A stretch of 64,000 nt of DNA from an uncultured SAR86 cluster bacterium (GTDB lineage: Bacteria; Pseudomonadota; Gammaproteobacteria; Magnimaribacterales; D2472), in NCBI GenBank assembly GCA_902541245.1, contig CACBPT010000003.1, positions 2,762 to 66,761 of the forward strand, read 5' to 3'. Position numbers and translations under genes: made by a program. Positions 3,537 to 22,813 of the stretch are shown piece by piece. Positions within the stretch are counted from its first letter, which is position 1. Every line of letters starts with the position of its first letter. Under the pieces are notes generated by a model. The model did not search any database, was not told where the DNA came from, and worked only from the letters and a program-made list of their open reading frames with translations.

Positions 3537-5504
3537 TTATTTATTAAAAAGGTCTCGATGCCATGACTGAAACATCAAGATAGTCCATAGTTGATTTTGC
3601 CAATTTCTGTCACCTTTTTTATGCTCCTTCCAAAATTTTTGAACAGTATTTGGACAAAAATACCCTTCTGCCTTAATTATGTCAGTATTCAATAAGTCCT
3701 CTGTCCATTCTAAAAGAGGTCCTTTAATCCACTCGCCAACTGGAACTCCAAAACCCATTTTTGGCCTTTCAAGCAAACTTCTATCAACATATTTATATAG
3801 GATATTTTTTAAAATTCTCTTACTATTTCCAGATTTTAATTTATATGATAAAGGGAGAGACCAAGCAAAATTAAAAACCTCATGATCAAGAAAAGGCGCA
3901 CGAGTCTCAAGGGAAACAGACATAGCAGCCCTGTCAACCTTAACCAAAATGTCATCCGTTAGATATCCCAGAGTATCAAAAAGCATAGCTTTTTCTATAT
4001 TGTTTAATGACTTGCTAAGTTGATTCATTTTTATCAAGCCTTCATCCAGTTTATCTGAAATAAATATATTATCTGAGCTAGTCCATAAATTTTGAGAATT
4101 TACATATAAAGAATTAAAGGATGAATTATTTAATAATTTTAAACCTTTTTTCAGTTTATCAGCTGGTCTGGAAAATCTTAAAAGAGTTGGAACAATTTTA
4201 GAGAGCATATTTAAATAGATGTTTAGTTGCTCTAAGGACATTTTTTCAACTTTATTAGAAATTAAGCCAACAAAAGATGAAGGTAAAAATTTAACTATGT
4301 TCCATAATTTTTGATTTATTTGATATCTATCATATCCACAAAAAATTTCGTCTCCAGCATCTCCAGTAAGGGCAACTACTACATCTTTTTTAGCTGATCT
4401 TGACACAACATGCGTAGGTATTTGAGAAGCATCAGCAAATGGCTCTGAATAAATTTCACTTAATCTAGGAATTATTGAAATAGCTTCATTGAAAGTTACT
4501 CTTTCTTCGGAATGATTAGTTCCTATTGCCTTAGCAACATCAGCGGCATGAGTAGATTCATCCCACTCTGCCTCATCAAAACCTATAGTAAATGTTTGGA
4601 TTGGTTGACTTGAAACGGATTGCATTATTGCTGTGACTAATGACGAATCTATTCCTCCTGACAAAAATGATCCTAGCGGAACATCAGAAATCATTTGATT
4701 TGTAACTTTCTTTTTTAAAATTGATTCAAGCTCATCGCTAGCCTCTTGAAAGCTTCCATGAAATTTCTCTTGATGAGATTTCATTGCCTCTACGCTAGCA
4801 TCCCAATAGATAAATTCTTTAATTTCCATATTATTTGGATCAATCGATATAAATGTTCCAGGCTTAACTTTAGATACTCCTGAAAAAATACATTTTGATC
4901 TAGGTACATATCCTAATTGAATATATTGATTTAATGCATCTCGATCGATTACTGGATTAAATTTTGGATGTTCGTTGAGCGCTGAAAGCTCAGATCCAAA
5001 AATAAAAAAGCCCTCATGGTTAGATGGATGTGAGATATAAACTGGCTTTTCACCAAAACGATCTCTGCAAATAAATAATTTTTTTTCTACCTCATCCCAA
5101 ATTGCAAATGCAAACATTCCCTGTAATTTTGATAATGTCTTTTTTAAACCATAATGCTCAACTAAAACTAAAAGAGTTTCAGTATCTGAAGAACCATTCC
5201 ATGAATTAAATTGAAAATCATTTTTTAAGGATGATCTCAACTCTAAATGATTATATATTTCTCCGTTATAAGTAACACAATATCTCGATGTGAATGATTT
5301 CATAGGCTGATGGCCTGTTTTGGTTAGATCTAAGATTGCTAATCTTTGATGTGCAAAAAAAATTTTATGCTCTGCATTCGTCCATGTACCACAACTATCT
5401 GGTCCACGAAATGCAATAGCGCTTCCCATTTTTTTTAAAATGCTAATAGATACGTCTTTTTTAAAATGATTCCTCTGATCAAGAAATCCTGCTATTCCGC
5501 ACAT
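3537..5504 (-). CDS. Asparagine synthetase B-family glutamine amidotransferase (WbpS-like, copy 1)
   Basis: 655 aa. It has the N-terminal MCGIAG Ntn-amidotransferase nucleophile and the SGGIDSS PP-loop (ISDVPLGSFLSGGIDSSLVTAIMQ). It lies inside the glycan cluster. Confidence 0.85.
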   Translation of the reverse strand: MCGIAGFLDQRNHFKKDVSISILKKMGSAIAFRGPDSCGTWTNAEHKIFFAHQRLAILDLTKTGHQPMKSFTSRYCVTYNGEIYNHLELRSSLKNDFQFNSWNGSSDTETLLVLVEHYGLKKTLSKLQGMFAFAIWDEVEKKLFICRDRFGEKPVYISHPSNHEGFFIFGSELSALNEHPKFNPVIDRDALNQYIQLGYVPRSKCIFSGVSKVKPGTFISIDPNNMEIKEFIYWDASVEAMKSHQEKFHGSFQEASDELESILKKKVTNQMISDVPLGSFLSGGIDSSLVTAIMQSVSSQPIQTFTIGFDEAEWDESTHAADVAKAIGTNHSEERVTFNEAISIIPRLSEIYSEPFADASQIPTHVVSRSAKKDVVVALTGDAGDEIFCGYDRYQINQKLWNIVKFLPSSFVGLISNKVEKMSLEQLNIYLNMLSKIVPTLLRFSRPADKLKKGLKLLNNSSFNSLYVNSQNLWTSSDNIFISDKLDEGLIKMNQLSKSLNNIEKAMLFDTLGYLTDDILVKVDRAAMSVSLETRAPFLDHEVFNFAWSLPLSYKLKSGNSKRILKNILYKYVDRSLLERPKMGFGVPVGEWIKGPLLEWTEDLLNTDIIKAEGYFCPNTVQKFWKEHKKGDRNWQNQLWTILMFQSWHRDLFNK

Positions 5505-5513
5505 TTATAATCC

Positions 5514-6386
5514 CTAATCAAGAAAGGTTTGAAGATATTCCCCATAAAGAGTTTTGGGAAATTTCTTAGCTTGATCTTTTATTTGATCTTTTGAGATCCA
5601 ATTATTTTGCAAAGCAACCTCTTCTAAGCAGCCAATTTGTGTTCCCTGTCTAAGTTGAAGAGATCTTATAAAATTTGCTGATTCCAAGAGATTTTCATGT
5701 GTTCCCGTATCTAGCCAAGCGAAGCCTCTACCTAATTTCTCTAAATTGAGCTGATTGTTATGCATATAAAGCTCTAATAATGAAGTGATTTCCAATTCTC
5801 CTCGCTTGGAAGGCTCAATTGTTTTTGCTTTACTTGGAGCAGAACTATCTAAAAAATATAATCCAGTCACAGCATAATTAGACGCTGGCTGAGTTGGCTT
5901 TTCCTCAATTGACAGAACATTGCCATTTGAATCAAAATCAGCAACTCCATATGATGATGGATCAGAAACTCTATAACCAAATATTGTTGCTATTTCTCTA
6001 CTTGAAGCTTTCTCTAGAATTTCTCTTAAGTAATATCCATAGAAAAAATTATCTCCTAAAATCATAGCTGATGGATGTCCATTTAAAAATTCTTCTGCAA
6101 GAATATATGCTTGAGCAAGTCCATCTGGACTGGGTTGAAATATATAGGAAATAGAAATACCAAATTGAGATCCATCTCCCAATAAATCGTAAAAATTTTT
6201 GTAATCTTCCTCCCTTATAATTACTGCAATTTCTTTAATCTTTGCCGACATTAGGACTGATAATGGATAAAAAATCATAGGCTTATCATAAATTGGTAGC
6301 AGTTGCTTAGAGATGCTAAGTGTAGCTGGGTACAATCTACTGCCCGTGCCTCCAGCTAAGATAATCCCCTTTCTATTTTTTTTCAT
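5514..6386 (-). CDS. rfbA: Glucose-1-phosphate thymidylyltransferase
   Basis: 290 aa with GIILAGGTGSRLYPATLSISKQLLPIYDKPMIFYPLS, the canonical RmlA N-terminus. It overlaps rfbD by 14 nt. Confidence 0.95.
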   Translation of the reverse strand: MKKNRKGIILAGGTGSRLYPATLSISKQLLPIYDKPMIFYPLSVLMSAKIKEIAVIIREEDYKNFYDLLGDGSQFGISISYIFQPSPDGLAQAYILAEEFLNGHPSAMILGDNFFYGYYLREILEKASSREIATIFGYRVSDPSSYGVADFDSNGNVLSIEEKPTQPASNYAVTGLYFLDSSAPSKAKTIEPSKRGELEITSLLELYMHNNQLNLEKLGRGFAWLDTGTHENLLESANFIRSLQLRQGTQIGCLEEVALQNNWISKDQIKDQAKKFPKTLYGEYLQTFLD

Positions 6387-7242
6387 TTCTTTTTAAAGCC
6401 TCTATTACATTGACTAAGTCATTCTCCCAAGAAGGCTGTTTTATATTATATGTTGAAAAAAGAGAGTCACAATCTAATCTTGAGTTTTTTGGTCTAGTTG
6501 CAAGTACTTCAAATTCCAATGAAGTTATCTCATTAATGTGAGTTGTGTAATTCATTTTTAATAAAATAGCTTTTGCAAAGTCTGCCCAGCTTACATAAGG
6601 GAAGCCAGAAAAATGAAATATTCCAGATACAAATCGCTCGTTAGAATATGCTTCTATTAACCTATAGCAAGCTTTTGCAATAGATTCTGCAGATGTTGGT
6701 CCACCAATTTGATCAGCAATAATAGAAATTTCATTTTTCTTATTGGCTAGATTGATTACTGATTTAAGGAAATTTTTATTGTGCTCAGAAAAAACCCATG
6801 ATGTTCTTAAGATGCAATATTTTCCATTTACATTAGAAATACGTTTTTCTCCATCACATTTTGATTTACCATAAACATTTATTGGATTAACTTTGTCCTC
6901 AGGTTTCCACGGCATCACTCCGGTTCCATCAAAAACATAATCAGTAGATATATGCAGAAGTGGTACATTAATTTTTTTTGCCTCAATCGCAATAATTTCT
7001 GGCGCATTAGCGTTAATATTGAAGGCTTCATCCTGGTTCAATTCAGCATTCTCAACATCAGTATAAGCAGCTGCATTAATAATAAAATCTGGTTTCAAAT
7101 TAAAAATGCAGCTGGCTATATCACTGGCATTCAGAAAATCAACCTCTGAACTATTTATTGATATTAAGTTAATTAATTTTGGTTTATGTTTTAAAAGTGT
7201 TAAACCAACTTGACTATTTTTTCCAAAGAGTAAAACTTTCAA
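6373..7242 (-). CDS. rfbD: dTDP-4-dehydrorhamnose reductase
   Basis: 289 aa, RmlD-like (short Rossmann N-terminus, STDYVFDG, YGKSK). It sits between rfbB and rfbA. Confidence 0.9.
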   Translation of the reverse strand: MKVLLFGKNSQVGLTLLKHKPKLINLISINSSEVDFLNASDIASCIFNLKPDFIINAAAYTDVENAELNQDEAFNINANAPEIIAIEAKKINVPLLHISTDYVFDGTGVMPWKPEDKVNPINVYGKSKCDGEKRISNVNGKYCILRTSWVFSEHNKNFLKSVINLANKKNEISIIADQIGGPTSAESIAKACYRLIEAYSNERFVSGIFHFSGFPYVSWADFAKAILLKMNYTTHINEITSLEFEVLATRPKNSRLDCDSLFSTYNIKQPSWENDLVNVIEALKRNEKK

Positions 7243-8279
7243 GAATTGTTACCAAGTCTTTTGCCTATGCCATCTCTAGACTTAAGATTCTCAAGCCACT
7301 CATTATTGTTTAAGTACCAAAGAACAGTCTCTTCCAAACCCTTATCAATATTGATTTTTGGTTGCCACCCTAAGTCATTACTAATTTTTGAAAAGTCAAT
7401 TGCATAACGCATATCATGCCCTGGGCGATCAGATACAAACTTTATTTGATTAGAATAAGGATCTTCTCTTGGTATCTTTTGATCAAGAATATTGCATAAT
7501 TTTTTTATAATCTGAATATTTTCAAGTTCATTGTTTCCACCGATATTGTAAGTTGATCCAATTTCTCCAAGTTCGAGAACTAAAATTAAAGCCTTTACAT
7601 GATCTGTAACATGAAGCCAGTCTCTTATATTTTTACCATCCCCGTAAATAGGAATATCTTTATTATTAATTGCATTCATGATAACAAGAGGTATAAGTTT
7701 CTCAGGAAATTGATAAGGTCCATAATTATTAGAACAATTTGTAACTAAGATTGGTAAATCATAAGTATCACCCCAAGCTCTAACAAGATGGTCAGATGAC
7801 GCTTTGGAGGCCGAATATGGACTTCTTGGGGAATATTTTGAATCCTCAGTAAAAAAACCATCTTTACCCAATGATCCAAAAACCTCATCTGTTGAAACGT
7901 GAAGAAATCTAAAATTAGATGGCCTTTTTTTCTTAACCCAAAATGAATAGGCTGCCTCTAGAAGGTTATAAGTTCCAAGAATATTAGTTTCAATAAAGTC
8001 AATAGGACTATCAATTGATCTGTCTACGTGAGTTTCAGCTGCTAAATGGATAATTGCATCAGGGCAAAATAACTCTACTAATTTATTTACAGACTTCCTA
8101 TCCTTAATGTCTATTTTCTTAAAGGAATAATTCTTATGGTTATCAACTGGGATCAAATTTGATAAACATGAAGCATAGGTTAGTGAATCTAAATTAAGAA
8201 TTTTGTGGCCTAATGGGATTGCCTCTCTAATAAATGCAGATCCAATAAAGCCAGCCCCGCCTGTTACAAGCAATTTCAA
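7239..8279 (-). CDS. rfbB: dTDP-glucose 4,6-dehydratase
   Basis: 346 aa with GGAGFIGS, STDEVFG and YSASKASSDHLV (YxxxK). Confidence 0.95.
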   Translation of the reverse strand: MKLLVTGGAGFIGSAFIREAIPLGHKILNLDSLTYASCLSNLIPVDNHKNYSFKKIDIKDRKSVNKLVELFCPDAIIHLAAETHVDRSIDSPIDFIETNILGTYNLLEAAYSFWVKKKRPSNFRFLHVSTDEVFGSLGKDGFFTEDSKYSPRSPYSASKASSDHLVRAWGDTYDLPILVTNCSNNYGPYQFPEKLIPLVIMNAINNKDIPIYGDGKNIRDWLHVTDHVKALILVLELGEIGSTYNIGGNNELENIQIIKKLCNILDQKIPREDPYSNQIKFVSDRPGHDMRYAIDFSKISNDLGWQPKINIDKGLEETVLWYLNNNEWLENLKSRDGIGKRLGNNS

Positions 8280-8366
8280 TTTATTATCCTAAGCATAAAA
8301 AAGTTATTTTAATTGTATCTATTAAAAGTAGAAAATTACAGAGAGTTATTTTATGATTTCAAAAAA

Positions 8367-10292
8367 TTATTTCTGTGATTTTAAGTAAGAAAAAAATCCA
8401 AGAATACGACCAGGAGCCTTCGTAACATCGATAATAGCTCCTAAGGCTCCAATTAATATCCACCTATGTGGCAATAAAAATGAAATACTGACTTTATGCA
8501 ATATTGGATTAATAAAGCCTCTAAAAATAAAGTAAGCAGCAAGAAAAGTTGACCAAAAGATTTTGTTAAGATTGGGAATAAAAAGTGGGTTATTAACATC
8601 CCATGTATCGCCAGAAACAATATGATTCCATCTATATAAAAATATAGCAAAAAAAATAAAAAATAATGCAACATAGAAAAACTTTTCTTTAATTAAAATA
8701 TTTACTTTCGAGTTTTCAATAGAATATCTAAGCCATTTTTTTATAGTCTTTTTAAGATTTATAGGTAATCCCGAGTAAGAAATTACGACTTTACTAACCC
8801 AGCTTGAGGACATTCTTTTATTAGTTCGTTTTATCCATTCCCAATCTTCACCAGCCCTTACATTGCTCAAAAAACCTGAATTTTTTTGAAAATTTTTATT
8901 CAAAACTATTGATCCTGGCAATGAACGCGCTGGAGTATTTCCAAAAGTGACTGCTTTCAAGTACTCCTTAAAAGATGAGTCAGCGGAACAAATCATTCTA
9001 GCTCCTACAAATTTTGTGTCATTTACTAGAGCTGTTCGTATCATTTCTTCCAGCCACTCAGGCGAAGGAGTAGTTCTTAGATCAAGAAAAGCCAACCACT
9101 TAGAGCTTGCATATCTAGCGCCGATATTTCTTGCTTTACCTGGATATGAGGCCTCAATAACTTTATAAAATATATTTAATTCTTTTTCGGACTCTATAAT
9201 TGATATAATTTTCTCATGGTTCGAAACCTGCGAAATTATAAAAATTATCTCTGTTGGAACGTAAGTCTGATTCTTAAGAGCTCTAATTAAATCCTCTAAA
9301 AAATCAGAACCACCAAATATAGGTATAATCACTGATGTTGTCTCAATTTTTGAGTCTATAATCTTGTTAGCTTTGTCAATTTCTAAAAAATAATCCTCTT
9401 GAGTCAAAATTTCTATTTTCTTGCTGTCAACTTGTTCCTTCAATACGTCTAAACATTTTTTGAAAAGTTGGAATTGTTTCTTTCCAGTTATAAAATTATG
9501 TGGATGAGACCAAAGGTTTATTGTGCCGTTATTTTTTGACGCATGATTTAGGGCATTTTTAAATCTCATAACCGATAGTGAAATTGGAATAAATCTTCTT
9601 AAGCCACTCCTCCAATTTAGGAAGAATCCACCTGGAATTGCAGTATAAGCTTCATAAAAATTGTAATGTTGAGACTTTGGATATAGATTGAGTTCACTGA
9701 TTAAAGCCTTTAATCTCGAGAATAAAGATAATGATGATATATATTTTGGTTGATCCCTATATGCATTGGCTTTTATTCTGCCTAAAAAATATCTACTGCC
9801 AACTTGATTCCTAGGAAAAATAAATGTCTTAGGCTTAATATTATTTGCTTCGTACCATTCTTGAATTCCTTTTGTTTCTAATTCTAATGATTCTGGAATA
9901 GCTGACTTCCATGCCAAATGAGTAAAGCCATGAGAACATATTTCGTGTTTTGTAGAAGAGCATGTAACTATATTCAATAACTCAGGACAAAACCAGCCTG
10001 ATAAATTATTTGATTCCACGTCATCGAAAAAGCGTTTAAGCCATTTACTATGATTTGGAGATCTTCTAAGTTCATCGCCCCACTTTTCAAGAAAAAACTT
10101 TGATTCCATTGTTAAGGCACTTACAAAGCCGAATGTAGCTGGCATATTATAGGTATCTAAAAGCCCAATTAATTCTTGATAAATGTTTTTCAGATTTTCC
10201 TCGGTAAGCATCTCATCATGGATTGCTGACAAATTGTCAGCCATGCCCCACTTACTTTCACAATCAAATGAAATAATACATTTTCCTGTCAT
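8367..10292 (-). CDS. Three-part fusion protein: N-terminal polysaccharide deacetylase (CE4/NodB-like), central GT2 glycosyltransferase, C-terminal multi-pass membrane segment
   Basis: 641 aa. Residues 1 to about 300 carry SFDCES, ATFGF, SHGFTH (H-x3-H), FIFPRNQ and LWSHPHNF. Residues from about 310 to 530 carry SVIIPIFGGSDFLEDLIRALKNQTY, AFLDLR and RAGEDWEW, all GT2-type motifs. Residues from about 540 to 641 are hydrophobic helices. Confidence 0.65.
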   Translation of the reverse strand: MTGKCIISFDCESKWGMADNLSAIHDEMLTEENLKNIYQELIGLLDTYNMPATFGFVSALTMESKFFLEKWGDELRRSPNHSKWLKRFFDDVESNNLSGWFCPELLNIVTCSSTKHEICSHGFTHLAWKSAIPESLELETKGIQEWYEANNIKPKTFIFPRNQVGSRYFLGRIKANAYRDQPKYISSLSLFSRLKALISELNLYPKSQHYNFYEAYTAIPGGFFLNWRSGLRRFIPISLSVMRFKNALNHASKNNGTINLWSHPHNFITGKKQFQLFKKCLDVLKEQVDSKKIEILTQEDYFLEIDKANKIIDSKIETTSVIIPIFGGSDFLEDLIRALKNQTYVPTEIIFIISQVSNHEKIISIIESEKELNIFYKVIEASYPGKARNIGARYASSKWLAFLDLRTTPSPEWLEEMIRTALVNDTKFVGARMICSADSSFKEYLKAVTFGNTPARSLPGSIVLNKNFQKNSGFLSNVRAGEDWEWIKRTNKRMSSSWVSKVVISYSGLPINLKKTIKKWLRYSIENSKVNILIKEKFFYVALFFIFFAIFLYRWNHIVSGDTWDVNNPLFIPNLNKIFWSTFLAAYFIFRGFINPILHKVSISFLLPHRWILIGALGAIIDVTKAPGRILGFFSYLKSQK

Positions 10293-10295
10293 GTC

Positions 10296-11333
10296 TTATC
10301 TTTGTTTATATGAAAACTCATCAAATCCATAATCTCCCAATAAATTCCAATGTTTGGTATGCACATTATCCTTACTTTTAGAACAAAAATATATATTGGG
10401 AGAGTCTTTTAATATTGAGAAATTACTTTGAGTGAGGCTTTTTTTTGCAAAATTACAGTCTGAAGTATTGAGAATAATTGGAAATCCCATGTTCTTTGAA
10501 AATTTACATGCCTCATTAACCAATATATCTGAGGACTGTTGAGTATGAAATGAACAATAGACAATTCTGCATATTGGTAAACTTTTTCTGATGCCAAATG
10601 AGAGACTAATAAAACTTTTTTTATCATGTAAAACCACTCTTGTTATCTTCGTTTGCTGATTAGAAAACAATCTCCATTTAAGAAATTTTTCAGTAACCCT
10701 ATAGCCATCGATACGATCAAAATCTTTTTGAATTAGAAAATCGAATAACTGATTACTTTCAAGCAATAAATAAATTTTTTGGCCCATATGATTTTTAATG
10801 TAATGATCTATATCTTTTTTTGAAACGGGGATTCCAAGCAGCCTTTTTAAAAAGTTAATTGGATTTGTGAAATGTATCCTTCTGTACCAAGTTGCACAGA
10901 CTTTGTAATGAGCGACTCTTTTATAAAAATTGTCCAACTCTCCTACAACTCCAGGCACAAAGAAAATAGGATCTCGAATTAAAGCGTCCGAGAGCAATAT
11001 ATATCCACACCCATAGTGATTTTTGTCAACCATTAGGTTATGTAACGCAGACACTTCTACAATTTCACCAGATTGAGAATGTACAAGCTTAACTCTTGTT
11101 CTATGCAAACAACCAATTACAGTATCAGGTGAATCATGACATCCAATGATAGACAAATCCTCATATCCTTTAGTATATGGCGATGCTTCATAAATATTCT
11201 TAAGAAAAGAAAAATTTTTCTGATATGCATTAAAGCCAAAATTTTTTTTTGAAAATAAAGAGTAATTTTTTTTATATTTTTCTGAAAATTTATCCAGAAA
11301 ATATCTATTTTTTTTATCTAATGAGTGACTCAA
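10296..11333 (-). CDS. Hypothetical protein, possibly a GNAT/FemAB-fold acyl- or aminoacyl-transferase
   Basis: 345 aa ORF with an apparent TTG start and no in-frame ATG for about 100 codons. The only hint of function is a GNAT-motif-A-like stretch, NHYGCGYILLSDAL. The context is 3 nt upstream of the deacetylase-GT2 fusion and 43 nt from the divergent carrier-protein gene. The function is not established. Confidence 0.35.
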   Translation of the reverse strand: MSHSLDKKNRYFLDKFSEKYKKNYSLFSKKNFGFNAYQKNFSFLKNIYEASPYTKGYEDLSIIGCHDSPDTVIGCLHRTRVKLVHSQSGEIVEVSALHNLMVDKNHYGCGYILLSDALIRDPIFFVPGVVGELDNFYKRVAHYKVCATWYRRIHFTNPINFLKRLLGIPVSKKDIDHYIKNHMGQKIYLLLESNQLFDFLIQKDFDRIDGYRVTEKFLKWRLFSNQQTKITRVVLHDKKSFISLSFGIRKSLPICRIVYCSFHTQQSSDILVNEACKFSKNMGFPIILNTSDCNFAKKSLTQSNFSILKDSPNIYFCSKSKDNVHTKHWNLLGDYGFDEFSYKQR

Positions 11334-11376
11334 TGTATCGTTTTACTATTAAAGACCTATGTAATATTATAGTGCG

Positions 11377-11604
11377 ATGATAGTGAATAAAGATATCTTC
11401 CTCGTAATTTTTGATATTAGCTCAGAAGAATTAGATAATCTAACTCCTGATGCCTCTCTTGTTGATGAGCTTGGTTGGGACTCAATGGCAAAAGTAATAT
11501 TAATATCAGAAATATCTGAAACCATGGATAAGGTTCTTGAGGCAGATGATTTAGAATCACTAGAAACAGCTGGAGATTTAGATCGTTTAATTTCATCTCA
11601 ATAA
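11377..11604 (+). CDS. Acyl (or aminoacyl) carrier protein
   Basis: 75 aa, acidic, with LGWDSMAKVILI, the DS(L/M) phosphopantetheine-attachment motif, at the expected position. The start is ATG. Confidence 0.75.
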   Translation: MIVNKDIFLVIFDISSEELDNLTPDASLVDELGWDSMAKVILISEISETMDKVLEADDLESLETAGDLDRLISSQ

Positions 11605-11615
11605 ATTTCTAAACA

Positions 11616-12533
11616 ATGTTTTTAATTCCTAGAATCTCAATATGTTTAGGTTCAAATATTGAAATGAATGAAGACCTTGAAAAGACTTTAGACTGGAAAC
11701 TTGGAAAAATAGAAGCAAAAACTGGCATAAGAAAACGATATCTCTCTGATCAATCCGAGACAACTGAAACATTGGCAATTGGTGCAGTTAAAAAGATTCC
11801 GGATATTGATTTGCTAGATGTTAATCTTATAATTAGTGTAACAAATACTCCATCTGTCTCATTTCCCACTCTTGCACATTTTATTCATTCAGAAATAAAG
11901 ACTGCTCAAGACACACATTGCCTTGGAATTAATTCTGGATGCAGTGGATTTGTTGATGCGCTTATAATCGCAAATAATTTTTTAAAATCAGATTGCTACA
12001 ATAAAGTATTAATAGTTACTTCAGATACTTATTCTAAATATATTGATCCTCTAGATTCATCTATTAGAACTTTATTTAGTGATGGGGCATCTGCAGTAAT
12101 TATAGAAAAAGATAAATCAGGTTTTTTTATTAAAAAAACAATTACAAATACTAAAAAGAATTCTGAAAAACACTTGTGTATGGAGCATGATGGTAAATCA
12201 ATTAAAGCTATTCAGATGAACGGCCCACAAGTTCTGACATTTGCAGTGGGAACTGTGCTACCTGGAATAAAAAAAATAATATCTAAGGAAGAAAGTTATG
12301 CAATGGTTCCACATCAAGCTGGAAAACTTGTTTTAGATACTTTTAAGAATAAAATCCCAAAAAATGTAAAGGTATATGAGAATTATCAAAATTTTGGAAA
12401 CCTAGTATCTACATCCATACCAAATCTTCTTAGTACAAAACCTAAAATATTAGCAAAAGAAAAAAATTTAATACTCGCGGGTTTTGGAGTTGGGCTTTCT
12501 CATACTTCAGTAAATTTATTTAAACCTAAATAA
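11616..12533 (+). CDS. 3-oxoacyl-ACP synthase III (FabH-like KAS III family) enzyme
   Basis: 305 aa with a Cys-His-Asn triad in the expected motifs: GINSGCSGFVDA, VPHQAG, NFGNLVSTSIP. It starts 11 nt after the carrier-protein gene. Confidence 0.8.
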   Translation: MFLIPRISICLGSNIEMNEDLEKTLDWKLGKIEAKTGIRKRYLSDQSETTETLAIGAVKKIPDIDLLDVNLIISVTNTPSVSFPTLAHFIHSEIKTAQDTHCLGINSGCSGFVDALIIANNFLKSDCYNKVLIVTSDTYSKYIDPLDSSIRTLFSDGASAVIIEKDKSGFFIKKTITNTKKNSEKHLCMEHDGKSIKAIQMNGPQVLTFAVGTVLPGIKKIISKEESYAMVPHQAGKLVLDTFKNKIPKNVKVYENYQNFGNLVSTSIPNLLSTKPKILAKEKNLILAGFGVGLSHTSVNLFKPK

Positions 12534-13086
12534 AATAATTACTTGCATCGTTAAGGCTAATTCCTTTTTTATCTTTATCTGATAGAAATAAATTTTCTAA
12601 ATCAAATTTCCAATCTATATTAAGAGAAGAATCATCATATCTCAATGTTACTTCATGTGATGGTTTATAAAATTCTGAGCATTTGTAGACTATCTCTGTA
12701 TTATCTTCAAGGGTAAGAAAACCATGTGCGAATCCCTCTGGGATAATAAGTTGATGTCTATTTTGAAAACTGATCACCTCAGTACCCCAAGTACCAAATG
12801 TTTCTGATCCAGGTCTTATATCAACAAATACATCAAGAAAGGCTCCTCGACCACAACGAACTAACTTAAGCTGACTATGTGGCGGTTTTTGAAAATGAAG
12901 TCCTCTTAAAGTTCCTTTCTTATATGAAAAAGAATGGTTTTCTTGAACAAATGTTAAATTTATACCATTTTTCGCTAGGGAATTCATATTCCAAGTTTCA
13001 GCAAAAAAACCTCTAGGGTCTTCAAATTTTGCCGGTTTGACAAGTTTAACATCTTTTATAGATGTGTTATTTATTTCAATGGTCAC
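12526..13086 (-). CDS. rfbC: dTDP-4-dehydrorhamnose 3,5-epimerase
   Basis: 186 aa with FEDPRGFFAETW, RGLHFQ and EGFAHGF, a typical RmlC cupin. It is separated from rfbBDA by about 4.2 kb. Confidence 0.95.
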   Translation of the reverse strand: MTIEINNTSIKDVKLVKPAKFEDPRGFFAETWNMNSLAKNGINLTFVQENHSFSYKKGTLRGLHFQKPPHSQLKLVRCGRGAFLDVFVDIRPGSETFGTWGTEVISFQNRHQLIIPEGFAHGFLTLEDNTEIVYKCSEFYKPSHEVTLRYDDSSLNIDWKFDLENLFLSDKDKKGISLNDASNYFI

Positions 13087-13114
13087 AGCTAATTATAATC
13101 TAAGCAATACAAAA

Positions 13115-14176
13115 TTAATAAAATGCATTGCCTTGTCTTAAAAATTTTATTTGATAAGGATCGTAACATCTATCAAAAAAGTATGAATTGGTACTCCAAA
13201 ATAAAAACATAAAAAAGAATGCGGCAAAACAAGAGATTACCAATAACTGTCTGTATCTTCCTTCAATATTTTGAATTCTTGCGAGAATTACCAGCGCAGG
13301 AATCCAAAGATAAAATCCTACTCGATCTGCTATAACAGTAGAGACAGGCAGGATAAAAAGAAAAAGTGAAATCATCCCAATTGCTCCAATCAAAACGAAT
13401 TGATAATCTCTAGGAAAATTTACCTCCCAATCAGCTCGCATGAAAATTATAAAATAAAGTCCAATAAGAAATAATATTGCAACTCTAAAATACGCTCCAA
13501 ATGCACTTAAATCTCCATCAACATATCTACTGATAGCTAAAGCTCCGTAGCTTGAGTTATAAATTAGTACTAATACAGGTAATGCTAGAATCCCCATAAA
13601 AAAAATATTCTTCATTGAGAATCTTAACCAAATAAATGGAGTCATTAAAAGAAAAATGATTGCGCTAGAATGAAACGATGCAGCTAAAACAATATAAATC
13701 AGAAATTTAAATGTCTTACGATCAATAAAACCAAGGAAAGAGAAGCATAAAAAACCAAAAGCTGCAGCTTGCCTTAAACCAGACATTGGTAATTGAATTA
13801 TTATAATTGGAAATGCTAGTGCAAGAAAAAATAAAGGATTTATGTTTCTTTGAGCAAGAGCATTTAGACCAGCAAAAAATATCAAAGAAATACAAACATT
13901 AAATGCTAAAAAACCAAATCCTAGATTCTTAAGGGCAATCATTAAAAGATTGTATCCCCATTCCAACGTTCCACCTGCTCTAAAAAAATAAACAGCATTA
14001 TCATATAAAAAAATCTCTTGATAGGTTAACCAGTCACAACCAACTTCATATCGATATGCGCAAAATATAAAAAGAGTAGAGATAAAAAATGTATACAAGA
14101 AACGCTCTATTTCGGGACCAAACTTTCTTAAATATGATGCAAAAATTAAACTAGAAAAGAGTAAGTAGTAGACCAT
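13115..14176 (-). CDS. EpsG-family / Wzy-like polysaccharide polymerase (integral membrane)
   Basis: 353 aa with about 10 hydrophobic helices and the N-terminal YRYEVGCDWLTYQEIF motif typical of the EpsG family. Confidence 0.65.
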   Translation of the reverse strand: MVYYLLFSSLIFASYLRKFGPEIERFLYTFFISTLFIFCAYRYEVGCDWLTYQEIFLYDNAVYFFRAGGTLEWGYNLLMIALKNLGFGFLAFNVCISLIFFAGLNALAQRNINPLFFLALAFPIIIIQLPMSGLRQAAAFGFLCFSFLGFIDRKTFKFLIYIVLAASFHSSAIIFLLMTPFIWLRFSMKNIFFMGILALPVLVLIYNSSYGALAISRYVDGDLSAFGAYFRVAILFLIGLYFIIFMRADWEVNFPRDYQFVLIGAIGMISLFLFILPVSTVIADRVGFYLWIPALVILARIQNIEGRYRQLLVISCFAAFFFMFLFWSTNSYFFDRCYDPYQIKFLRQGNAFY

Positions 14177-14211: not shown

Positions 14212-16164
14212 TCAATTTGACCACTCTTCTAACCATAATTGAAACATTAAGATTGTCCATAGTTTATGTCCATGATTATATTGCTCTGATTGATGCTCAT
14301 TCCAAATAGAGATAACTGCACTTTCGTCAAGAAAACCATAGAACTGAATTTTAGAGGGGCTCAATAAATCTTCAGCCCAATCTTTTAAATCATTTCTCAA
14401 CCACCTATCAATAGGAATGGTGAAACCCTGTTTAGGTCTTTCAAATAATTTTTTTGGTAAGTACTTTAACAAAAGTTCCCTTAAAATATATTTGCCGTTT
14501 TTTTTATTAAAAAGATGTTGATCAGGCAAACTCCACGCAGCCTCAACTAATTTGTGATCAAGAAATGGAGCGCGTGTTTCTAATGCAGTACTCATTGACG
14601 CTCTATCTACTTTTACCAGTATATCACTTGGCAGATAAGCTTTGGTATCTGCAAACATCATTGAGCGAGCCAATGATAAATCTGAGTGGAGAATATTTGA
14701 GCTGTTATTACATTTATTTTGGTAATAGTGATTAAGTAAAACTTTTTTATTGCTGTGAAAAGTCCTGGTAAGGTTAAGAAATAAATCCTCAAAATTATTT
14801 GCTGATCCTAAAATATCTGCTAGAAGCTGAAATCTATCTAGGCTGGATTTTGGAAGCCCAGAACGGTTAACAATTGTTTGCATGAAATTATTTTGGTTAT
14901 TTCCAAAATAATGAGCTGCTCTCCCCAAAAACTTTATTTGCCTTCTAATCGAAGCAGGGAATTTTGAAGCAAAACTCCATATTTTGGGAGCAAAAATGTA
15001 TCTGTTATATCCTCCAAAAACCTCGTCTCCTCCGTCCCCCGTCAATGCAACAGTTACATGCTTCTTTGCTTCTCTCGATAACAGTAAGGTGGGAATCTGA
15101 GAATAATCTGCAAATGGCTCATCATAAATTTTAGCAAGCTGAGGAATAACATTTAAAGCCTGAGATTGGTTAAGATAAAAAGATTGATGCTCAGTCCCAA
15201 GATAAGATGCAACTTCCTCTGCAAAAACAGCCTCATTATATTCACTTTCCTCGAAACCTATTGAAAACGACTTTACCTTATTGATTGAAATTTTTTGCAT
15301 TATTGCTGTAACCAAAGATGAATCTATTCCTCCAGATAAAAATGATCCAAGAGGCACATCGCTGATCATTTGAGAAGATATAACTTCTTTTAAAAGTTCA
15401 TCAATATATTCAATATTTTTTTGAATTGGCTGATTCAAATTTTTTATTGAGTAAAATTCTCTTTCTTTTTTTAGAGACCAAAATGGATAAATTTTTGGTT
15501 TATCTAAACATGATGAAAATTCAACTATACTACCAGGCTGCACTTTTTGAACACAAGAATAGATTGAATCTGACTCATCGATATAACTGGTTTCAAAATA
15601 TCCACTTAAGGCAGTTTTATTGATTAGAAGCTTTTCATTTGAGAATTTTCTTATGGCTTTTATCTCAGAGGCAAAAACTATCTTATCTTCGTCCTGTAAA
15701 AAATATAATGGCTTTTCGCCAATCCTATCTCTAACAAAAAAGAGTTTTTTTTCTTGCTTGTCCCAAAGTGCAAATGCAAACATGCCTCTACACTTTAAGA
15801 TTGCTTCATTTAAACCCCAGCACTCTATTGCTGCAAGCAAAGTTTCAGTGTCAGAGGTGCCTATCCATTTTTTTTGAATTAGACCGGATTCAAGTATTTT
15901 TCTAATTTCCTTGTGGTTATAAATTTCTCCATTATATGTAAGAACATATCTCTTTGAATGAGATTGCATTGGTTGATGGCCTGCTGAGCTTAAATCTAAA
16001 ATTGATAATCGAACATGACCAAAACAAAGATTATCCTCATTACTTATGTAAGATCCATTGCTATCTGGCCCTCTATGACTGATAGCATCCATCATCCCTT
16101 CTAAAACTTCATTCGAATCAAAATGATATGATTTATTTAACCAAAATCCAGTTATTCCACACAT
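14212..16164 (-). CDS. Asparagine synthetase B-family glutamine amidotransferase (WbpS-like, copy 2)
   Basis: 650 aa with MCGITG and the same 24-residue ISDVPLGSFLSGGIDSSLVTAIMQ block as copy 1. The DNA differs at many synonymous sites, so this is an old paralog and not a recent duplication. Confidence 0.85.
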   Translation of the reverse strand: MCGITGFWLNKSYHFDSNEVLEGMMDAISHRGPDSNGSYISNEDNLCFGHVRLSILDLSSAGHQPMQSHSKRYVLTYNGEIYNHKEIRKILESGLIQKKWIGTSDTETLLAAIECWGLNEAILKCRGMFAFALWDKQEKKLFFVRDRIGEKPLYFLQDEDKIVFASEIKAIRKFSNEKLLINKTALSGYFETSYIDESDSIYSCVQKVQPGSIVEFSSCLDKPKIYPFWSLKKEREFYSIKNLNQPIQKNIEYIDELLKEVISSQMISDVPLGSFLSGGIDSSLVTAIMQKISINKVKSFSIGFEESEYNEAVFAEEVASYLGTEHQSFYLNQSQALNVIPQLAKIYDEPFADYSQIPTLLLSREAKKHVTVALTGDGGDEVFGGYNRYIFAPKIWSFASKFPASIRRQIKFLGRAAHYFGNNQNNFMQTIVNRSGLPKSSLDRFQLLADILGSANNFEDLFLNLTRTFHSNKKVLLNHYYQNKCNNSSNILHSDLSLARSMMFADTKAYLPSDILVKVDRASMSTALETRAPFLDHKLVEAAWSLPDQHLFNKKNGKYILRELLLKYLPKKLFERPKQGFTIPIDRWLRNDLKDWAEDLLSPSKIQFYGFLDESAVISIWNEHQSEQYNHGHKLWTILMFQLWLEEWSN

Positions 16165-19623: not shown

Positions 19624-20565
19624 TTAGCTTGACTTTGAATCAGGAGAGGACTCGGAGCGATTTAGCTCCCAAAATAAAGCAATCATGCTAAAGAAAACTA
19701 ATGCGCCTAATGAATACCACATGAGCATCAATGCTCTTGAGGGTGAGTGCTTTTTTTCCTCAACAAAAGGAGATTCAATTGGTTTAAGTGCAAAATTTTT
19801 ACTCACATCAGCAAGCATTTTCTTTTCAAGCTGCTTTTGTATTAAAGATGATATTGAATTTCTGAGTTCAATTAAAAATGTTCCTGTAAGCTGAGATTCA
19901 AGAAAATCTAAAGCAGCATTTGCCTCTATAGATGATTTTTTTCTTAAGCTAAGATTAACCTCATCAACTATTAAATTTAGAAAATAATTAGCAAACTCAG
20001 GGGATATATGATCAAAAGAAATATAGATAAAATTATCTCCTTGATCTTGAAATACAGATAAAAGTTTTCTGTAGACTATGTAAGCTTGATGTACAGATGG
20101 AACTTCATTATTCCATTGTTTATTTTTAATTGAAAAAACACTTTCATCAAAGTCAATTTTTTTAGTTTCTTGATTATAGCTCTCTGCTGCGAGTAATGCG
20201 GGCAAGACATCATCAAATTTAATAAGATGCTCTAAAAATGTTTTAGATCTAATTGTTTCAACAATAATATCGCCTTTATTAGTTTTCCCTCCACCCAAAC
20301 TTACTCCAACCGCACCCGCTATAGAACTGAGCCCAGATTTTTGAACATGAGATGATGTCTCACCAGTACCAGCAACTTCATAAATGCCTGAAGACCTATA
20401 TACATTTGGTAAAGAGAACGCATAAATGAGTGTAATAGCCATAACTAAAACTAAACCTATTACAATGTTCGTTCTTTGGCGCAAAACTAACTCTAAAGCA
20501 TATGAAATGGTAATTTCATTCTCTTGGTAACCAGTTATTATTTTATTATTGCCAGAATCAGACAT
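19624..20565 (-). CDS. Wzz-like polysaccharide chain-length determinant (PCP-1 type, no kinase domain)
   Basis: 313 aa. An N-terminal Wzz-type segment (I.LVLVMAITLIYAFSLPNVYRS after a short cytoplasmic tail) and a second TM helix near the C-terminus give the two-TM periplasmic-loop topology. Confidence 0.7.
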   Translation of the reverse strand: MSDSGNNKIITGYQENEITISYALELVLRQRTNIVIGLVLVMAITLIYAFSLPNVYRSSGIYEVAGTGETSSHVQKSGLSSIAGAVGVSLGGGKTNKGDIIVETIRSKTFLEHLIKFDDVLPALLAAESYNQETKKIDFDESVFSIKNKQWNNEVPSVHQAYIVYRKLLSVFQDQGDNFIYISFDHISPEFANYFLNLIVDEVNLSLRKKSSIEANAALDFLESQLTGTFLIELRNSISSLIQKQLEKKMLADVSKNFALKPIESPFVEEKKHSPSRALMLMWYSLGALVFFSMIALFWELNRSESSPDSKSS

Positions 20566-20640: not shown

Positions 20641-21552
20641 TCATGACTTGTTGCTTAATAGCATGCTTAGCTCTTTAGTTCTAATCTCTCTTCCCAAAAT
20701 ACTAGGATGATGAGATGCATCACAAATATATTCCATTTGACTTATTGAGGGCGATAAAAATAATTGAAATCCAGCATTTTGTATTAACAAATTAAGTTTA
20801 TCCAAAGTTTCTTTGTCGATACTTATCTCGTTAAAAACTGCAGGGATAACAAAAAATACTTTTGCGTTTGGAAAATTAGACTTTATGAAATCATTATAGG
20901 CATTGAATTCAACTTCAAATTCCTTTTGTATTTGAAGTTTATGTTTGTATCCGGAAATATGATCTTGTAAATTCTCATCAATCAATAATGGATCTGAAGC
21001 TGGACATCTAAAACTTTCTTCCAGAAAATCACCAGTATTTTGATCATGGAGAAACTTATGTGGATTAGATAAAAAAGTGTTTTTTAAATGCTGGCCTAAT
21101 GAAAGATTTAGACCATGCTTTATAGAATTTAATTTACCAGAAATATCCCTAGTAAAATCATCATATGGAGGAAGATCTAAGGGATGAATGGTAGACCATA
21201 TAATATAATCAATATTTATTTTCTGCTCTGTTGAAAGCACTGAATTAATATATTCAAAATAATTTAAATAATTAAACCCATTACTGGGTAATGAAAAATT
21301 ATAAAAATCTTGATCTGTGTCTATTGATAATTGCTCAGCTGATATCCCCCACATTGCATTTGAACCGCCAAAAATTAGGCCATTAATTATTTTATTTGAA
21401 GAGGCGAATCTTTCTTTTGATTTAATAATTCTATCTCTTATGCCGTGATCATCATAGAAATAACTATCTAAAGTCAATAAACATAGATATGCAATAAACA
21501 AGAATAAGAAGTTTTTAATGTTGAAAAAGTTACCTTTGGCCATAAGCTGCAT
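20641..21552 (-). CDS. DltD/AlgJ-like SGNH-type partner of the MBOAT protein (putative extracytoplasmic acyltransferase)
   Basis: 303 aa with one N-terminal TM anchor, a GGSNAMWG block (compare the GSSE / GDS block I) and a C-terminal DASHH (DxxH block V-like). Its start overlaps the end of the MBOAT gene by 14 or 23 nt. Confidence 0.45.
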   Translation of the reverse strand: MQLMAKGNFFNIKNFLFLFIAYLCLLTLDSYFYDDHGIRDRIIKSKERFASSNKIINGLIFGGSNAMWGISAEQLSIDTDQDFYNFSLPSNGFNYLNYFEYINSVLSTEQKINIDYIIWSTIHPLDLPPYDDFTRDISGKLNSIKHGLNLSLGQHLKNTFLSNPHKFLHDQNTGDFLEESFRCPASDPLLIDENLQDHISGYKHKLQIQKEFEVEFNAYNDFIKSNFPNAKVFFVIPAVFNEISIDKETLDKLNLLIQNAGFQLFLSPSISQMEYICDASHHPSILGREIRTKELSMLLSNKS

Positions 21553-22813
21553 AATCTATTCCAGTAGATGAACCTATCAGAAATATAAAAATTATTACCA
21601 TAACAAATTGGGGATATCTTAATCTAAAGAACTTATAATTCCTTTTTTTGAAATATCTTGTATCTTGAAAAAAGAATTCAGACATCACGATAGCTATTGC
21701 AAATGCCAAGGCAATAAATGAAGATAAGGGTGTAATACTTAGAAGCATATCTAATGTCTGCATTGGATCGCCTGTATTGGGAATAAATTTTTCAAATAGT
21801 CTTTTTGTATTTGAATCAGCAAATAAAACTCTTCCATAAATGATCGCAAAAAACATTAAAAATGTGGATGTTCTAATAAAATTAGATTTTAAAAGTTTTA
21901 TTGTGGAGATAAAACAAAGTGCATGAAATGCACCCCACATCAAAAAATTAACGGTCACACCATGCCATAAAGCAGAGCTAATATAGACTGCAAATAATGC
22001 AACTGGGGTAGAAAAATATTTTTTCGCAGGAAGGTAAAATAATACACGTAAAACTGAAGACAAGCTTCGATGCCAACCTCTCCAAAATTCAATAACATTC
22101 TTAGAAGAAAATGGTTGTTTAAAGTTCAACGGTATTTTCACTCCAAATATTCCAAAAATAGAATATATAATTAGAGATAATCCACAAAAATTAAAATAAA
22201 TAAATAATTCAAAAATTATTCCAAATATAAAAACTTCAATAGAAGAGGTTATATCAAGCATCCAGAAAAAGTTCGTTAACGGCACGCCCACTATTTTGAA
22301 AAAGAATAAACCTAACACGAAGAATGGAAGAAAATAGTTCAGCCTATTTACAAAAGCTTGATGAGTGAGTGATGAAAATATAACGGCAATTGGTCCTGTT
22401 AATAATAGTAATGGATTTGCAGCAATGTAGGCAGAGTAAAAGTTAATCTTCTTATTTATGATCTGAAATGCAAAATATGCTGTGTAAAAAGAAAGTCCGT
22501 ATATGTATGGATTAGTAGAAGTAGCATGAGAGCCAGTAAGAACTGAAGTTAAACCAAAGAAAGAGGCTATAGAAATACTAAAGAATAAGAAATACGCAAA
22601 AGCACTTTTCATTAACTGATGATTCTCTAAAGCTTTATATAGGCCAAGTATTAAAATAGACGCGAGTAAAGGAGATACGATTTTTATAAAAATTTCTAGA
22701 GTGCTGCTAGAGAAATTGTGATTTGGATCAGTTGATATTGACTGAAGAACTCCATATCCAAAGAAAAGGAAGCCAAACAGAAAAAGGGTAAGTTGAGATT
22801 TTTTTTTAATCAT
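21530..22813 (-). CDS. MBOAT-family membrane-bound O-acyltransferase (AlgI/DltB-like)
   Basis: 427 aa, polytopic, with FWRGWHRSLSSVLRVLFYLP and SSALWHGV, the MBOAT signature including the conserved His. Confidence 0.8.
   Translation of the reverse strand: MIKKKSQLTLFLFGFLFFGYGVLQSISTDPNHNFSSSTLEIFIKIVSPLLASILILGLYKALENHQLMKSAFAYFLFFSISIASFFGLTSVLTGSHATSTNPYIYGLSFYTAYFAFQIINKKINFYSAYIAANPLLLLTGPIAVIFSSLTHQAFVNRLNYFLPFFVLGLFFFKIVGVPLTNFFWMLDITSSIEVFIFGIIFELFIYFNFCGLSLIIYSIFGIFGVKIPLNFKQPFSSKNVIEFWRGWHRSLSSVLRVLFYLPAKKYFSTPVALFAVYISSALWHGVTVNFLMWGAFHALCFISTIKLLKSNFIRTSTFLMFFAIIYGRVLFADSNTKRLFEKFIPNTGDPMQTLDMLLSITPLSSFIALAFAIAIVMSEFFFQDTRYFKKRNYKFFRLRYPQFVMVIIFIFLIGSSTGIDYAAYGQR

Follow-up and report, generated by a model that had tools for sequence, protein, structure and literature searches.

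The window analyzed here is a stretch of 64,000 nucleotides from an uncultured bacterium of the SAR86 cluster (contig CACBPT010000003.1), and it carries four adjacent genes lying between rmlC on one side and rmlBDA on the other. Open reading frame (ORF) calls placed all four exactly where the first-pass annotation had positioned them. The gene at 8367 to 10292 (minus strand) encodes a 641-aa protein in which a CE4-like deacetylase domain is fused to a GT2 glycosyltransferase domain and a membrane region. Directly upstream lies the gene for a 345-aa protein, hereafter the orphan (10296 to 11333, minus strand, TTG start), whose stop codon is separated from the fusion-gene start by 3 nt. Divergently, across a gap of 43 nt confirmed in the sequence (11334 to 11376), follow genes for a 75-aa acyl carrier protein (ACP; 11377 to 11604, plus strand) and a 305-aa ketoacyl-ACP synthase III (KAS III; 11616 to 12533, plus strand), spaced 11 nt apart. 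The four genes had been read as a module that deacetylates a surface-glycan sugar and re-acylates it from the carrier protein. Comparison with related loci redefined the conserved unit as a tandem GNAT, a cytoplasmic CE4 protein, a dedicated ACP, and a variable acyl-ACP-forming enzyme.

The orphan itself matched no Pfam or NCBIfam model. A word-indexed database returned nine close homologs, all from syntenic clusters, and an exhaustive hidden Markov model (HMM) search expanded the family to ~158 representative clusters (50% identity) of proteins 320 to 360 aa in length. Among 58 members of the family, 28 matched the GNAT model Acetyltransf_9 and 16 matched Acetyltransf_1, and the orphan profile gave a weak match to the GNAT structure 1wwz. 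An AlphaFold2 model built on a 58-sequence alignment from the exhaustive HMM search reached a pLDDT of 93.1 and a pTM of 0.90; modeling from eight close homologs (pLDDT 41.7) gave no usable fold. The confident model consists of two beta-alpha-alpha-beta3-alpha-beta-alpha-beta units, i.e., a tandem GNAT, bearing out the transferase-like character that the first-pass annotation had ascribed to this protein on the basis of a single motif. Foldseek searches against the PDB placed N-myristoyltransferases (NMTs) at the top (E ~2e-12, probability 1.0), with template modeling (TM) scores of 0.55 to 0.61 and sequence identities of 11 to 15%. The conserved HNLMVD..H.G.G motif of the family maps to the GNAT beta4-alpha3 loop, the element that holds the pantetheine-pyrophosphate. 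By sequence, the family falls outside the NMTs (PF01233/PF02799), to which one of the 58 members gave a match at E 0.044. No match to FemAB, Acetyltransf_6, or TIGR03019 was found among the 58 members at E <= 1, and neither they nor the window orphan matched the NodA model. The orphan is predicted to be a tandem-GNAT acyltransferase that uses acyl-ACP. Acyl-ACP-using enzymes of the GNAT superfamily include LuxI-type synthases, HlyC, and OlsB. In one related locus, from an alphaproteobacterial metagenome-assembled genome (MAG; L006 in our numbering of related loci), the orphan homolog was split into two overlapping ORFs of 206 and 159 aa (9989 to 11015), the cause being either a frameshift in a pseudogene or a mistake in assembly.

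Within the fusion protein, the CE4-like (NodB-homology) domain covers residues 1 to 302 (9387 to 10292, minus strand) and the GT2 domain residues ~317 to 520 (8733 to 9344, minus strand). The C-terminal membrane region and stop codon occupy 8367 to 8732 (minus strand), with hydrophobic helices at residues ~530 to 559 and ~603 to 621 in a hydropathy scan. The fused ORF, 641 to 651 aa long, was found again on independent metagenome contigs (L001 to L003, L011 to L014) and is therefore not an assembly artifact. The GT2 domain and the helices of the proposed fusion were confirmed, as was its kinship with a CE4-like family, but the window protein itself stayed below the cut-off of the Pfam deacetylase model (PF01522, Polysacc_deac_1; 19.9 bits, cut-off 23.1). 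The stand-alone CE4 homolog of L006 scored 25.6 bits against the same model, and many family members have a precomputed PF01522 match. Stand-alone proteins of 305 to 330 aa, drawn from a wide range of sources, matched residues 1 to 302 with E values of 1e-80 to 1e-93.

In a 23-sequence alignment of this CE4 family, the motifs SFDCE(G/S)KWG, HE..SHGFTH, FPRN, and LWSHPHNF were invariant. The motif 2 histidines (H121 and H125 of SHGFTH) align to HSFHH of Bacillus subtilis PdaA in a profile search, and FPRN (invariant P160, R161, and N162) aligns with the RPP region of the same enzyme in the family profile. In LWSHPHN, H263 is invariant and H265 near-invariant, at the place expected of motif 5 and outside the profile alignment to PdaA. 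Motif 1, the invariant SFDCE, also falls outside that alignment; here, D10 is kept, the metal-binding Asp is replaced by Cys11, and Glu12 follows (10260 to 10268, minus strand; fusion residues 9 to 13). Of the catalytic and metal residues of a CE4 enzyme, the domain keeps both histidines of the metal motif and appears to keep an Arg motif and the leading Asp of motif 1; the second Asp is a Cys, which could form part of a Cys-His-His metal site or act as a nucleophile. Against NCBIfam, 18 of the 23 members matched the XrtA deacetylase TIGR03006 (best E 8e-5), 15 matched NodB (best E 1.3e-4), and three matched HfsH, all weakly and far under the model cut-offs; judged by these sequences, the family is a distinct CE4 subfamily for which no dedicated model exists. 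No N-terminal extension or signal peptide was found in any of the 23 aligned members, and the hydropathy scan revealed no transmembrane segment between the CE4 and GT2 domains, hydrophobic helices occurring only after residue ~530. Hence, the CE4 domain is placed in the cytoplasm, where acyl-ACP is present, as is HfsH and unlike PgaB, IcaB, and the deacetylase domain of MatB.

The GT2 domain scored 57 bits against PF00535 (E 2.9e-15, residues 320 to 447, cut-off 23.3 bits), with GalT1 (5hea) and chondroitin synthase (2z86) as PDB sequence matches. It carries no DxD motif, FLDLRT aligning to FVDSDD and ILDCDM, and no first Asp motif, FIISQVSN aligning to INDGSTDN such that ISQVSN replaces DDxSxD; the ED motif is retained. 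The D-[LI]-R and IS.V substitutions are shared by marine relatives, whereas more distant GT2s keep DDxSTD and LDADD. Their conservation suggests a functional yet atypical transferase, and the marine GT2 may be a metal-independent or otherwise unusual GT-A enzyme. GT2 domains of the marine lineage (including L008, L017, L019, and L020) are ~50% identical despite the lost Asp motifs. The membrane region is likewise conserved in the stand-alone GT2-transmembrane proteins of these four loci.

The ACP matched PF00550 (PP-binding) at 24.3 bits against a cut-off of 20.8 and has its phosphopantetheine site at Ser36 in the sequence DSM, yet it fell below the AcpP equivalog cut-offs of NCBIfam (best 31.1 versus 72 bits; TIGR00517, 15.4 versus 70.45). 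KAS III contains both Pfam domains, ACP_syn_III and ACP_syn_III_C, above their cut-offs (73.8 and 36.8 bits). Alignment to solved FabH structures located an intact Cys109-His233-Asn262 triad, so that the carrier site and the active site were both as first described. This enzyme, too, was under the NCBIfam FabH cut-offs (NF006829, 174.5 versus 249 bits; TIGR00747, 143.6 versus 292.1). The Cys-His-Asn triad is kept in all cassette-linked KAS III proteins, to which the window enzyme is slightly closer (123 to 142 bits) than to solved FabHs (<=115 bits). These scores, and the presence of relatives beside orphan and CE4 genes in polysaccharide loci, support the reading of the two as a dedicated pair.

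Gene context across related loci

A search of species-representative genomes seeded with a 13-sequence orphan alignment returned three loci, one in Polaromonas and two in MAGs of alpha- and gammaproteobacterial origin. Scanning metagenomes with a CE4-domain alignment added 80 loci, and 90 related loci were analyzed in all. ORFs were called in every locus and the components sought by profiles or iterated searches. Clustering of the CE4 proteins at 70% identity, with at least 1.1 kb of upstream sequence, produced a non-redundant set of 45 clusters. The loci included representatives of the Alpha-, Beta-, and Gammaproteobacteria as well as the Planctomycetes; in a locus whose CE4 protein is named as planctomycetal, orphan and CE4 genes were adjacent. 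Directly after the orphan in all three orphan-seeded genome loci was a stand-alone CE4 homolog corresponding to fusion residues 1 to 302, and upstream in Polaromonas (L005) and the alphaproteobacterial MAG (L006) were genes for an ACP, a short-chain dehydrogenase/reductase (SDR), and a short AMP-binding ligase.

Across the 90 loci, an orphan gene was found near the CE4 gene in 49, usually directly upstream, and in 27 of the 45 non-redundant clusters. An ACP or ACP-charging enzyme was located within 6 kb in 12 of 14 non-redundant orphan-positive loci with long flanks, compared with none of nine orphan-negative CE4 loci with long flanks (Fisher p = 7e-5, without correction for phylogeny). The two ACP-less exceptions, L055 and L067, were marginal orphan matches (E ~1e-5). 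The associated enzymes fell into three classes: KAS III with or without an SDR (L025, L027, L043, L047, L048, L051, L056, L064, L075, and L092), an ACP-SDR-AMP-ligase set (L005, L006, L033, L071, and L091), and an FkbH-like protein with an ACP (L009 and L062). In L009, the order comprised a divergent ACP gene, an FkbH-like (HAD phosphatase-type) loader, and the orphan. In L053 and L084, SDR and AMP-ligase genes were present and no ACP was detected. Further look-ups seeded with the orphan, based on a word-index profile search yielding 18 proteins, covered three contigs. In two of these (L091 and L092), genes for acyl-building enzymes were accompanied by a CE4 gene with Pfam support and by an ORF of the size of an ACP. 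In the third (P0242), a 308-aa gene without annotation lay adjacent, along with an ORF of 103 aa.

Closer relatives of the window resolved the unit further. The marine island L008 is syntenic with the window, running through rmlC, CE4 (312 aa), GT2-transmembrane (332 aa), and rmlBDA genes, and has no orphan, ACP, or KAS III gene, its CE4 and GT2 proteins being separately encoded; the same separation and the same absences were found in L017, L019, and L020. The orphan, ACP, and KAS III genes come as a set, islands that otherwise share synteny having all three or none, and the CE4-GT2 fusion is specific to the lineage of the window (L001 to L003, L011 to L014). The four-gene co-occurrence anticipated by the first-pass annotation held across phyla for the orphan, the CE4-like gene, and the ACP, but KAS III proved replaceable and the GT2 fusion a local arrangement. 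Elsewhere, genes for TauD/TfdA dioxygenases, S-adenosylmethionine (SAM)-dependent methyltransferases, and an MBL-fold protein stand beside cassette ACP or KAS III genes (L047, 8353 to 9285; L048, 12157 to 13056; L064, 12145 to 13026; L051, 5291 to 6043; L092, 1697 to 2326), which suggests that the acyl group on the ACP is hydroxylated, methylated, or released.

The surrounding polysaccharide island

On the right flank of the four genes lies rmlC, encoding dTDP-4-dehydrorhamnose 3,5-epimerase (12526 to 13086), and on the left flank rmlB (7239 to 8279), rmlD (6373 to 7242), and rmlA (5514 to 6386), all on the minus strand. Their identities were taken from orthologous loci carrying Pfam calls and from phmmer mapping; in L001, the orthologs have PF00908, Epimerase/GDP_Man_Dehyd, RmlD_sub_bind, and NTP_transferase, respectively. 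KAS III and rmlC converge, their 3' ends overlapping by 8 nt (12526 to 12533), leaving no space for a terminator between them, and the 43-nt gap between the orphan and ACP genes presumably carries overlapping promoters. Promoter and terminator scans of 8000 to 13500 detected nothing exceeding the shuffled-sequence background, and an Rfam scan of the window, which has a G+C content of ~31%, found two tRNAs and nothing else.

One long polysaccharide island, nearly all on the minus strand, extends from the left end of the window to a tRNA-Cys(GCA) gene (29678 to 29751, minus strand) that lies directly at its right boundary, between ugd and housekeeping genes. Beyond this tRNA are a cytidylyltransferase-like gene, pgsA, and uvrC, and the housekeeping genes at 30 to 64 kb comprise uvrC, pgsA, pgi, pheST, rpsA, aroA, gyrA, pntAB, and aroG. 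Read from right to left by Pfam and orthology, the island begins with genes for a UDP-glucose dehydrogenase, a 457-aa protein, a second UDP-sugar dehydrogenase, an epimerase, and an ABC exporter. It continues with an MBOAT, a 303-aa single-transmembrane protein, a Wzz-like protein, two methyltransferases, a TOD1/MUCI70-like protein, a GT4, an AsnB-type protein, and EpsG, and ends with rmlC, the four module genes, rmlB, rmlD, rmlA, a second AsnB, a GT4, and a Wza-like exporter. The two AsnB-type glutamine amidotransferases (3537 to 5504 and 14212 to 16164, minus strand) and the two UDP-sugar dehydrogenases (25641 to 26927 and 28338 to 29642, minus strand) suggest that the polymer contains amidated (N-acetyl)hexuronic acids. 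AsnB and GT4 genes recur beside CE4-family genes in the unrelated loci L041, L047, L051, L080, L081, L084, and L092.

Several other members of the island have distinctive features, all on the minus strand. The gene for the TOD1/MUCI70 glycosyltransferase-like protein (245 aa, PF04765; 17238 to 17975) is kept in three syntenic islands of marine origin (L001, L004, and L008), and the 457-aa ORF (26950 to 28323) has no Pfam match. A 313-aa protein with terminal hydrophobic segments (19624 to 20565) resembles Wzz-type chain-length regulators. The MBOAT (427 aa; 21530 to 22813) matches PF03062 weakly, and its gene overlaps that of the 303-aa protein, which has a single N-terminal transmembrane helix, a GGSNAMWG motif, and no Pfam match; the pair, spanning 20641 to 22813, looks like an O-acylation pair of the AlgI/AlgJ or DltB/DltD type. 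In agreement with the first-pass annotation, no DegT/WecE-type aminotransferase was found among the Pfam-scanned ORFs of the island, which cover 1 to 29.6 kb of the window, the island itself continuing past its left end.

A candidate N-acyl editing module

These observations are probably best explained by a module that deacetylates a sugar of the surface polysaccharide and then re-acylates the freed amine from acyl-ACP, both in the cytoplasm. KAS III and the dedicated ACP would build a short acyl thioester, most likely acetoacetyl-ACP from acetyl-CoA and malonyl-ACP, which a housekeeping reductase might convert to 3-hydroxybutyryl-ACP. Acetoacetyl (or 3-hydroxybutyryl) is the likeliest group because the triad for decarboxylative condensation is intact and because many relatives have an SDR alongside KAS III. 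The CE4 domain, whose motifs are described above, would take the N-acetyl group off an N-acetyl-hexosamine or N-acetyl-hexosaminuronic acid, probably within an undecaprenyl-linked repeat-unit intermediate or a nucleotide sugar at the cytoplasmic face of the membrane. Given the two UDP-sugar dehydrogenases, the epimerase, and the two AsnB-type amidotransferases, an N-acetyl-hexosamine or its uronic or uronamide form is the likely acceptor. The orphan would then move the acyl group from the ACP to the amine, its N-terminal GNAT domain holding the phosphopantetheine arm and its second domain providing the acceptor site, as in NMT. The GT2 domain may add a sugar before or after re-acylation; its location inside the rml operon suggests that this sugar is L-rhamnose, or the hexosamine itself.

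The strongest argument for transfer from ACP is the pairing of three non-homologous ACP-charging systems with one two-gene core, whereas the near-constant adjacency of orphan and CE4 genes argues that the acceptor is the amine released by deacetylation. The latter argument is reinforced by the lack of a sugar aminotransferase among the island ORFs scanned. Since the core of orphan, CE4, and ACP is combined with different acyl-building enzymes, it appears to be a general-purpose platform on which diverse acyl groups can be installed. More broadly, and with somewhat less assurance than for the module itself, we propose that the orphan founds an unannotated, widespread family of tandem-GNAT acyl-ACP glycan N-acyltransferases that forms, with the Cys-motif CE4 subfamily, a modular N-acetyl to N-acyl editing platform with interchangeable ACP-charging enzymes, joined by hydroxylases and methyltransferases; we regard this wider claim as tentative, at slightly short of even chances.

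Several points weigh against the proposed module. Donor, acceptor, and regiochemistry are deduced from gene context, and the co-occurrence statistics were not adjusted for shared ancestry. In all nine long-flank orphan-negative loci, including L008 and L017, the CE4 family occurs without orphan or ACP, which implies a role for the deacetylase that is independent of re-acylation. The invariant Cys in motif 1 means that its chemistry may differ from that of classical CE4 enzymes, and the GT2 domain is missing the canonical DxD and first Asp motifs. Unlike many of its relatives, the cassette of the window has no reductase or other tailoring enzyme, and malonylation of the dedicated ACP would need a FabD encoded elsewhere. 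The deacetylate-then-re-acylate logic of the first-pass annotation nevertheless survived the computational checks, with its unit redefined and with the acceptor sugar, the choice between N- and O-acylation, and the identity of the acyl group still read from context.

The independent occurrence of the CE4 family also speaks for the least improbable of the alternatives, which is nonetheless unlikely: the CE4 domain would merely expose an amine for charge, as in poly-N-acetylglucosamine (PNAG) and holdfast, and the orphan would use the acyl-ACP to O-acylate a sugar, or to N-acylate an amine of another origin. Fusion of the CE4 domain to GT2 rather than to the orphan fits such a division of labor. 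However, the orphan lies near CE4, often with overlapping stop and start codons, in those 27 of 45 non-redundant clusters, and orphan-seeded look-ups return CE4 genes nearby (Pfam-supported in L091 and L092); furthermore, GNATs are overwhelmingly N-acyltransferases, and deacetylation has no competing aminotransferase in the island as scanned. Next in order, and unlikely as well, KAS III might prime the ACP for elongation by housekeeping fatty acid synthesis, the orphan then N-acylating the deacetylated sugar with a long chain to give a lipid-anchored or amphiphilic polysaccharide, by a logic like that of LpxC/LpxD, the textbook example of an N-acylation from acyl-ACP that is preceded by deacetylation. 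The nearest structures to the orphan are indeed NMTs, which bind C14 acyl groups, and the window cassette has a priming-type KAS III alone, with no tailoring enzymes. Yet at TM scores of 0.55 to 0.61 and 11 to 15% identity, the NMT match probably reflects shared tandem-GNAT architecture. An elongating KAS I/II was in none of the cassettes seen, and the partners found elsewhere (FkbH-like proteins of the glyceryl-ACP type, short AMP-ligases, SDRs, TauD-like proteins, and methyltransferases) imply short polar acyl groups.

The donor could also differ, with the orphan using acyl-CoA or, like FemX, aminoacyl-tRNA, and the ACP and KAS III supplying something else. CoA thioesters serve most GNATs, and Fem-family tandem GNATs take aminoacyl-tRNA. 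FemX is the nearest solved homolog of the tandem-GNAT protein HfsK (PMC5362036). We nevertheless hold this to be improbable, since ACP systems are tied to orphan-positive loci (12 of 14 versus none of nine), the ACP-loading enzymes are of three unrelated kinds, and no family member matched a FemAB model. Far less credible than any of these is the possibility that the ACP and KAS III supply the MBOAT and its 303-aa partner in an O-acylation outside the cytoplasm, similar to that of DltC/DltB/DltD. The MBOAT and the GGSNAMWG protein do share the island, and DltB-type MBOATs use a carrier protein, but that pair is kept in L017 and L020, which are without ACP, KAS III, and orphan. Moreover, the ACP follows the orphan and not the MBOAT across phyla, and in the window it is divergently coupled to the orphan and 9 kb from the MBOAT. 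Equally remote is an ordinary fatty-acid-synthesis paralog in a coincidental neighborhood. While the fully canonical KAS III triad and the FabH proteins that are its best PDB matches would suit such a paralog, both proteins score under the NCBIfam FabH and AcpP cut-offs, the KAS III-ACP-orphan set comes and goes as a block between syntenic islands, and cassette-linked KAS III genes again adjoin orphan and CE4 genes in unrelated loci. A scheme of the ArnC/ArnD kind, in which a polyprenyl-phosphate GT2 acts with a CE4 deformylase, was also considered; no search result tied the GT2 domain to the ArnC/GtrB type.

Bacterial O-antigens and capsules carry many unusual N-acyl groups, including 3-hydroxybutyryl, glyceroyl, and hydroxylated or methylated acyls, which determine serotype, recognition by phages and the immune system, and how the polymer behaves physically. 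Most of these groups have no transferase known to us, or one presumed to be a CoA-dependent hexapeptide-repeat enzyme that works on the product of an aminotransferase. The present data point to a second, apparently undescribed route, in which a CE4 enzyme frees the amine and a tandem GNAT re-acylates it from a dedicated ACP, with swappable acyl-building enzymes. If true, this would provide a functional annotation for two protein families currently without a specific model, make glycan acyl chemistry predictable from sequence in abundant uncultured marine bacteria, and equip glycoengineering with a modular toolkit. A testable mechanism for deacetylate-then-acylate proposals of the HfsH/HfsK type would also result, and such an N-acyl editing platform would explain part of the poorly understood variety of exotic N-acyl groups on the polysaccharides of bacteria.

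Comparison with known systems

The first-pass annotation did not recognize the gene combination or the fusion as a described system. Full-text searches of the literature collection available found no paper on a polysaccharide module of CE4, GNAT, and ACP, but both CE4-GT2 fusions (PMC5972031) and pairs of deacetylase and double-GNAT genes (PMC5362036, PMC3684757) are known. The precedent for the fusion is Streptomyces MatB, a bifunctional CE4 deacetylase and GT2 PNAG synthase in one membrane protein (PMC5972031). The deacetylase of MatB is described as extracellular and its GT2 as intracellular, whereas both domains of the fusion described here are cytoplasmic and precede the transmembrane helices, and the GT2 has non-canonical motifs. 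Among solved structures, the eukaryotic NMTs share with the orphan two tandem GNAT domains, of which the N-terminal one binds the acyl donor; they use myristoyl-CoA and a protein N terminus, and their sequence identity to the orphan is 11 to 15%.

Removal of an acetyl group followed by addition of an ACP-borne acyl group is known logic, found in LpxC/LpxD and in NodB/NodA with NodF/NodE, and the proteins described here are, by their sequences, outside those families. In the LpxC/LpxD pathway of lipid A, a metal-dependent cytoplasmic deacetylase likewise acts on a GlcNAc derivative, UDP-3-O-acyl-GlcNAc, and an acyl-ACP acyltransferase re-acylates the amine. However, LpxC has a fold of its own rather than that of CE4. 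LpxD, instead of being a GNAT, folds as a left-handed beta-helix and draws long 3-hydroxyacyl chains from the housekeeping ACP. The resemblance to Nod-factor synthesis noted in the first-pass annotation held at the level of function, the parts list (a GT2, a CE4 deacetylase, a dedicated ACP that supplies an N-acyltransferase, and a ketosynthase; NodC/NodB/NodA and NodF/NodE) being common to both. It did not extend to the proteins: the orphan has no detectable similarity to NodA, the ketosynthase is a KAS III whereas NodE is of the KAS I/II type, and the GT2, without DxD, is not of the NodC/chitin-synthase type. The setting, too, is a Wza/EpsG-type polysaccharide island and not a lipochitooligosaccharide locus.

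A dedicated ACP and ketosynthases also occur within the O-polysaccharide locus of Flavobacterium psychrophilum, where wfpC-wfpG encode an ACP, two KAS proteins, a ketoreductase, and a PglD-like acyltransferase (PMC6519341). This set is predicted to make a short hydroxy-acyl group N-linked to an amino sugar (PMC6519341). There, however, the transferase is a PglD-like hexapeptide-repeat protein and the amine comes from the aminotransferase PglE, not from deacetylation. In XrtA/PEP-CTERM loci, the TIGR03006 deacetylase gene adjoins a FemAB-related gene (TIGR03019) in the published gene table (PMC3684757), placing a deacetylase beside a tandem-GNAT gene together with GT4, AsnB-type amidotransferase, MBOAT, and Wza genes, as in the window. 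The gene order is reversed in the window, where no exosortase or PEP-CTERM genes were seen, and the orphan does not match TIGR03019. Alongside the XrtA pair, the nearest described parallel is the Caulobacter holdfast, in which the cytoplasmic CE4 enzyme HfsH exposes amines that the tandem-GNAT protein HfsK has been proposed, though only proposed, to acylate (PMC5362036). Both systems combine a cytoplasmic CE4 protein, which in Caulobacter acts on polysaccharide precursors, with a putative acyltransferase of two GNAT domains. HfsK is FemX-like, controlled by cyclic di-GMP, and has no known ACP partner, whereas the orphan family, without a FemAB-type match, is nearest to NMT and is linked to an ACP and its acyl-building enzymes.

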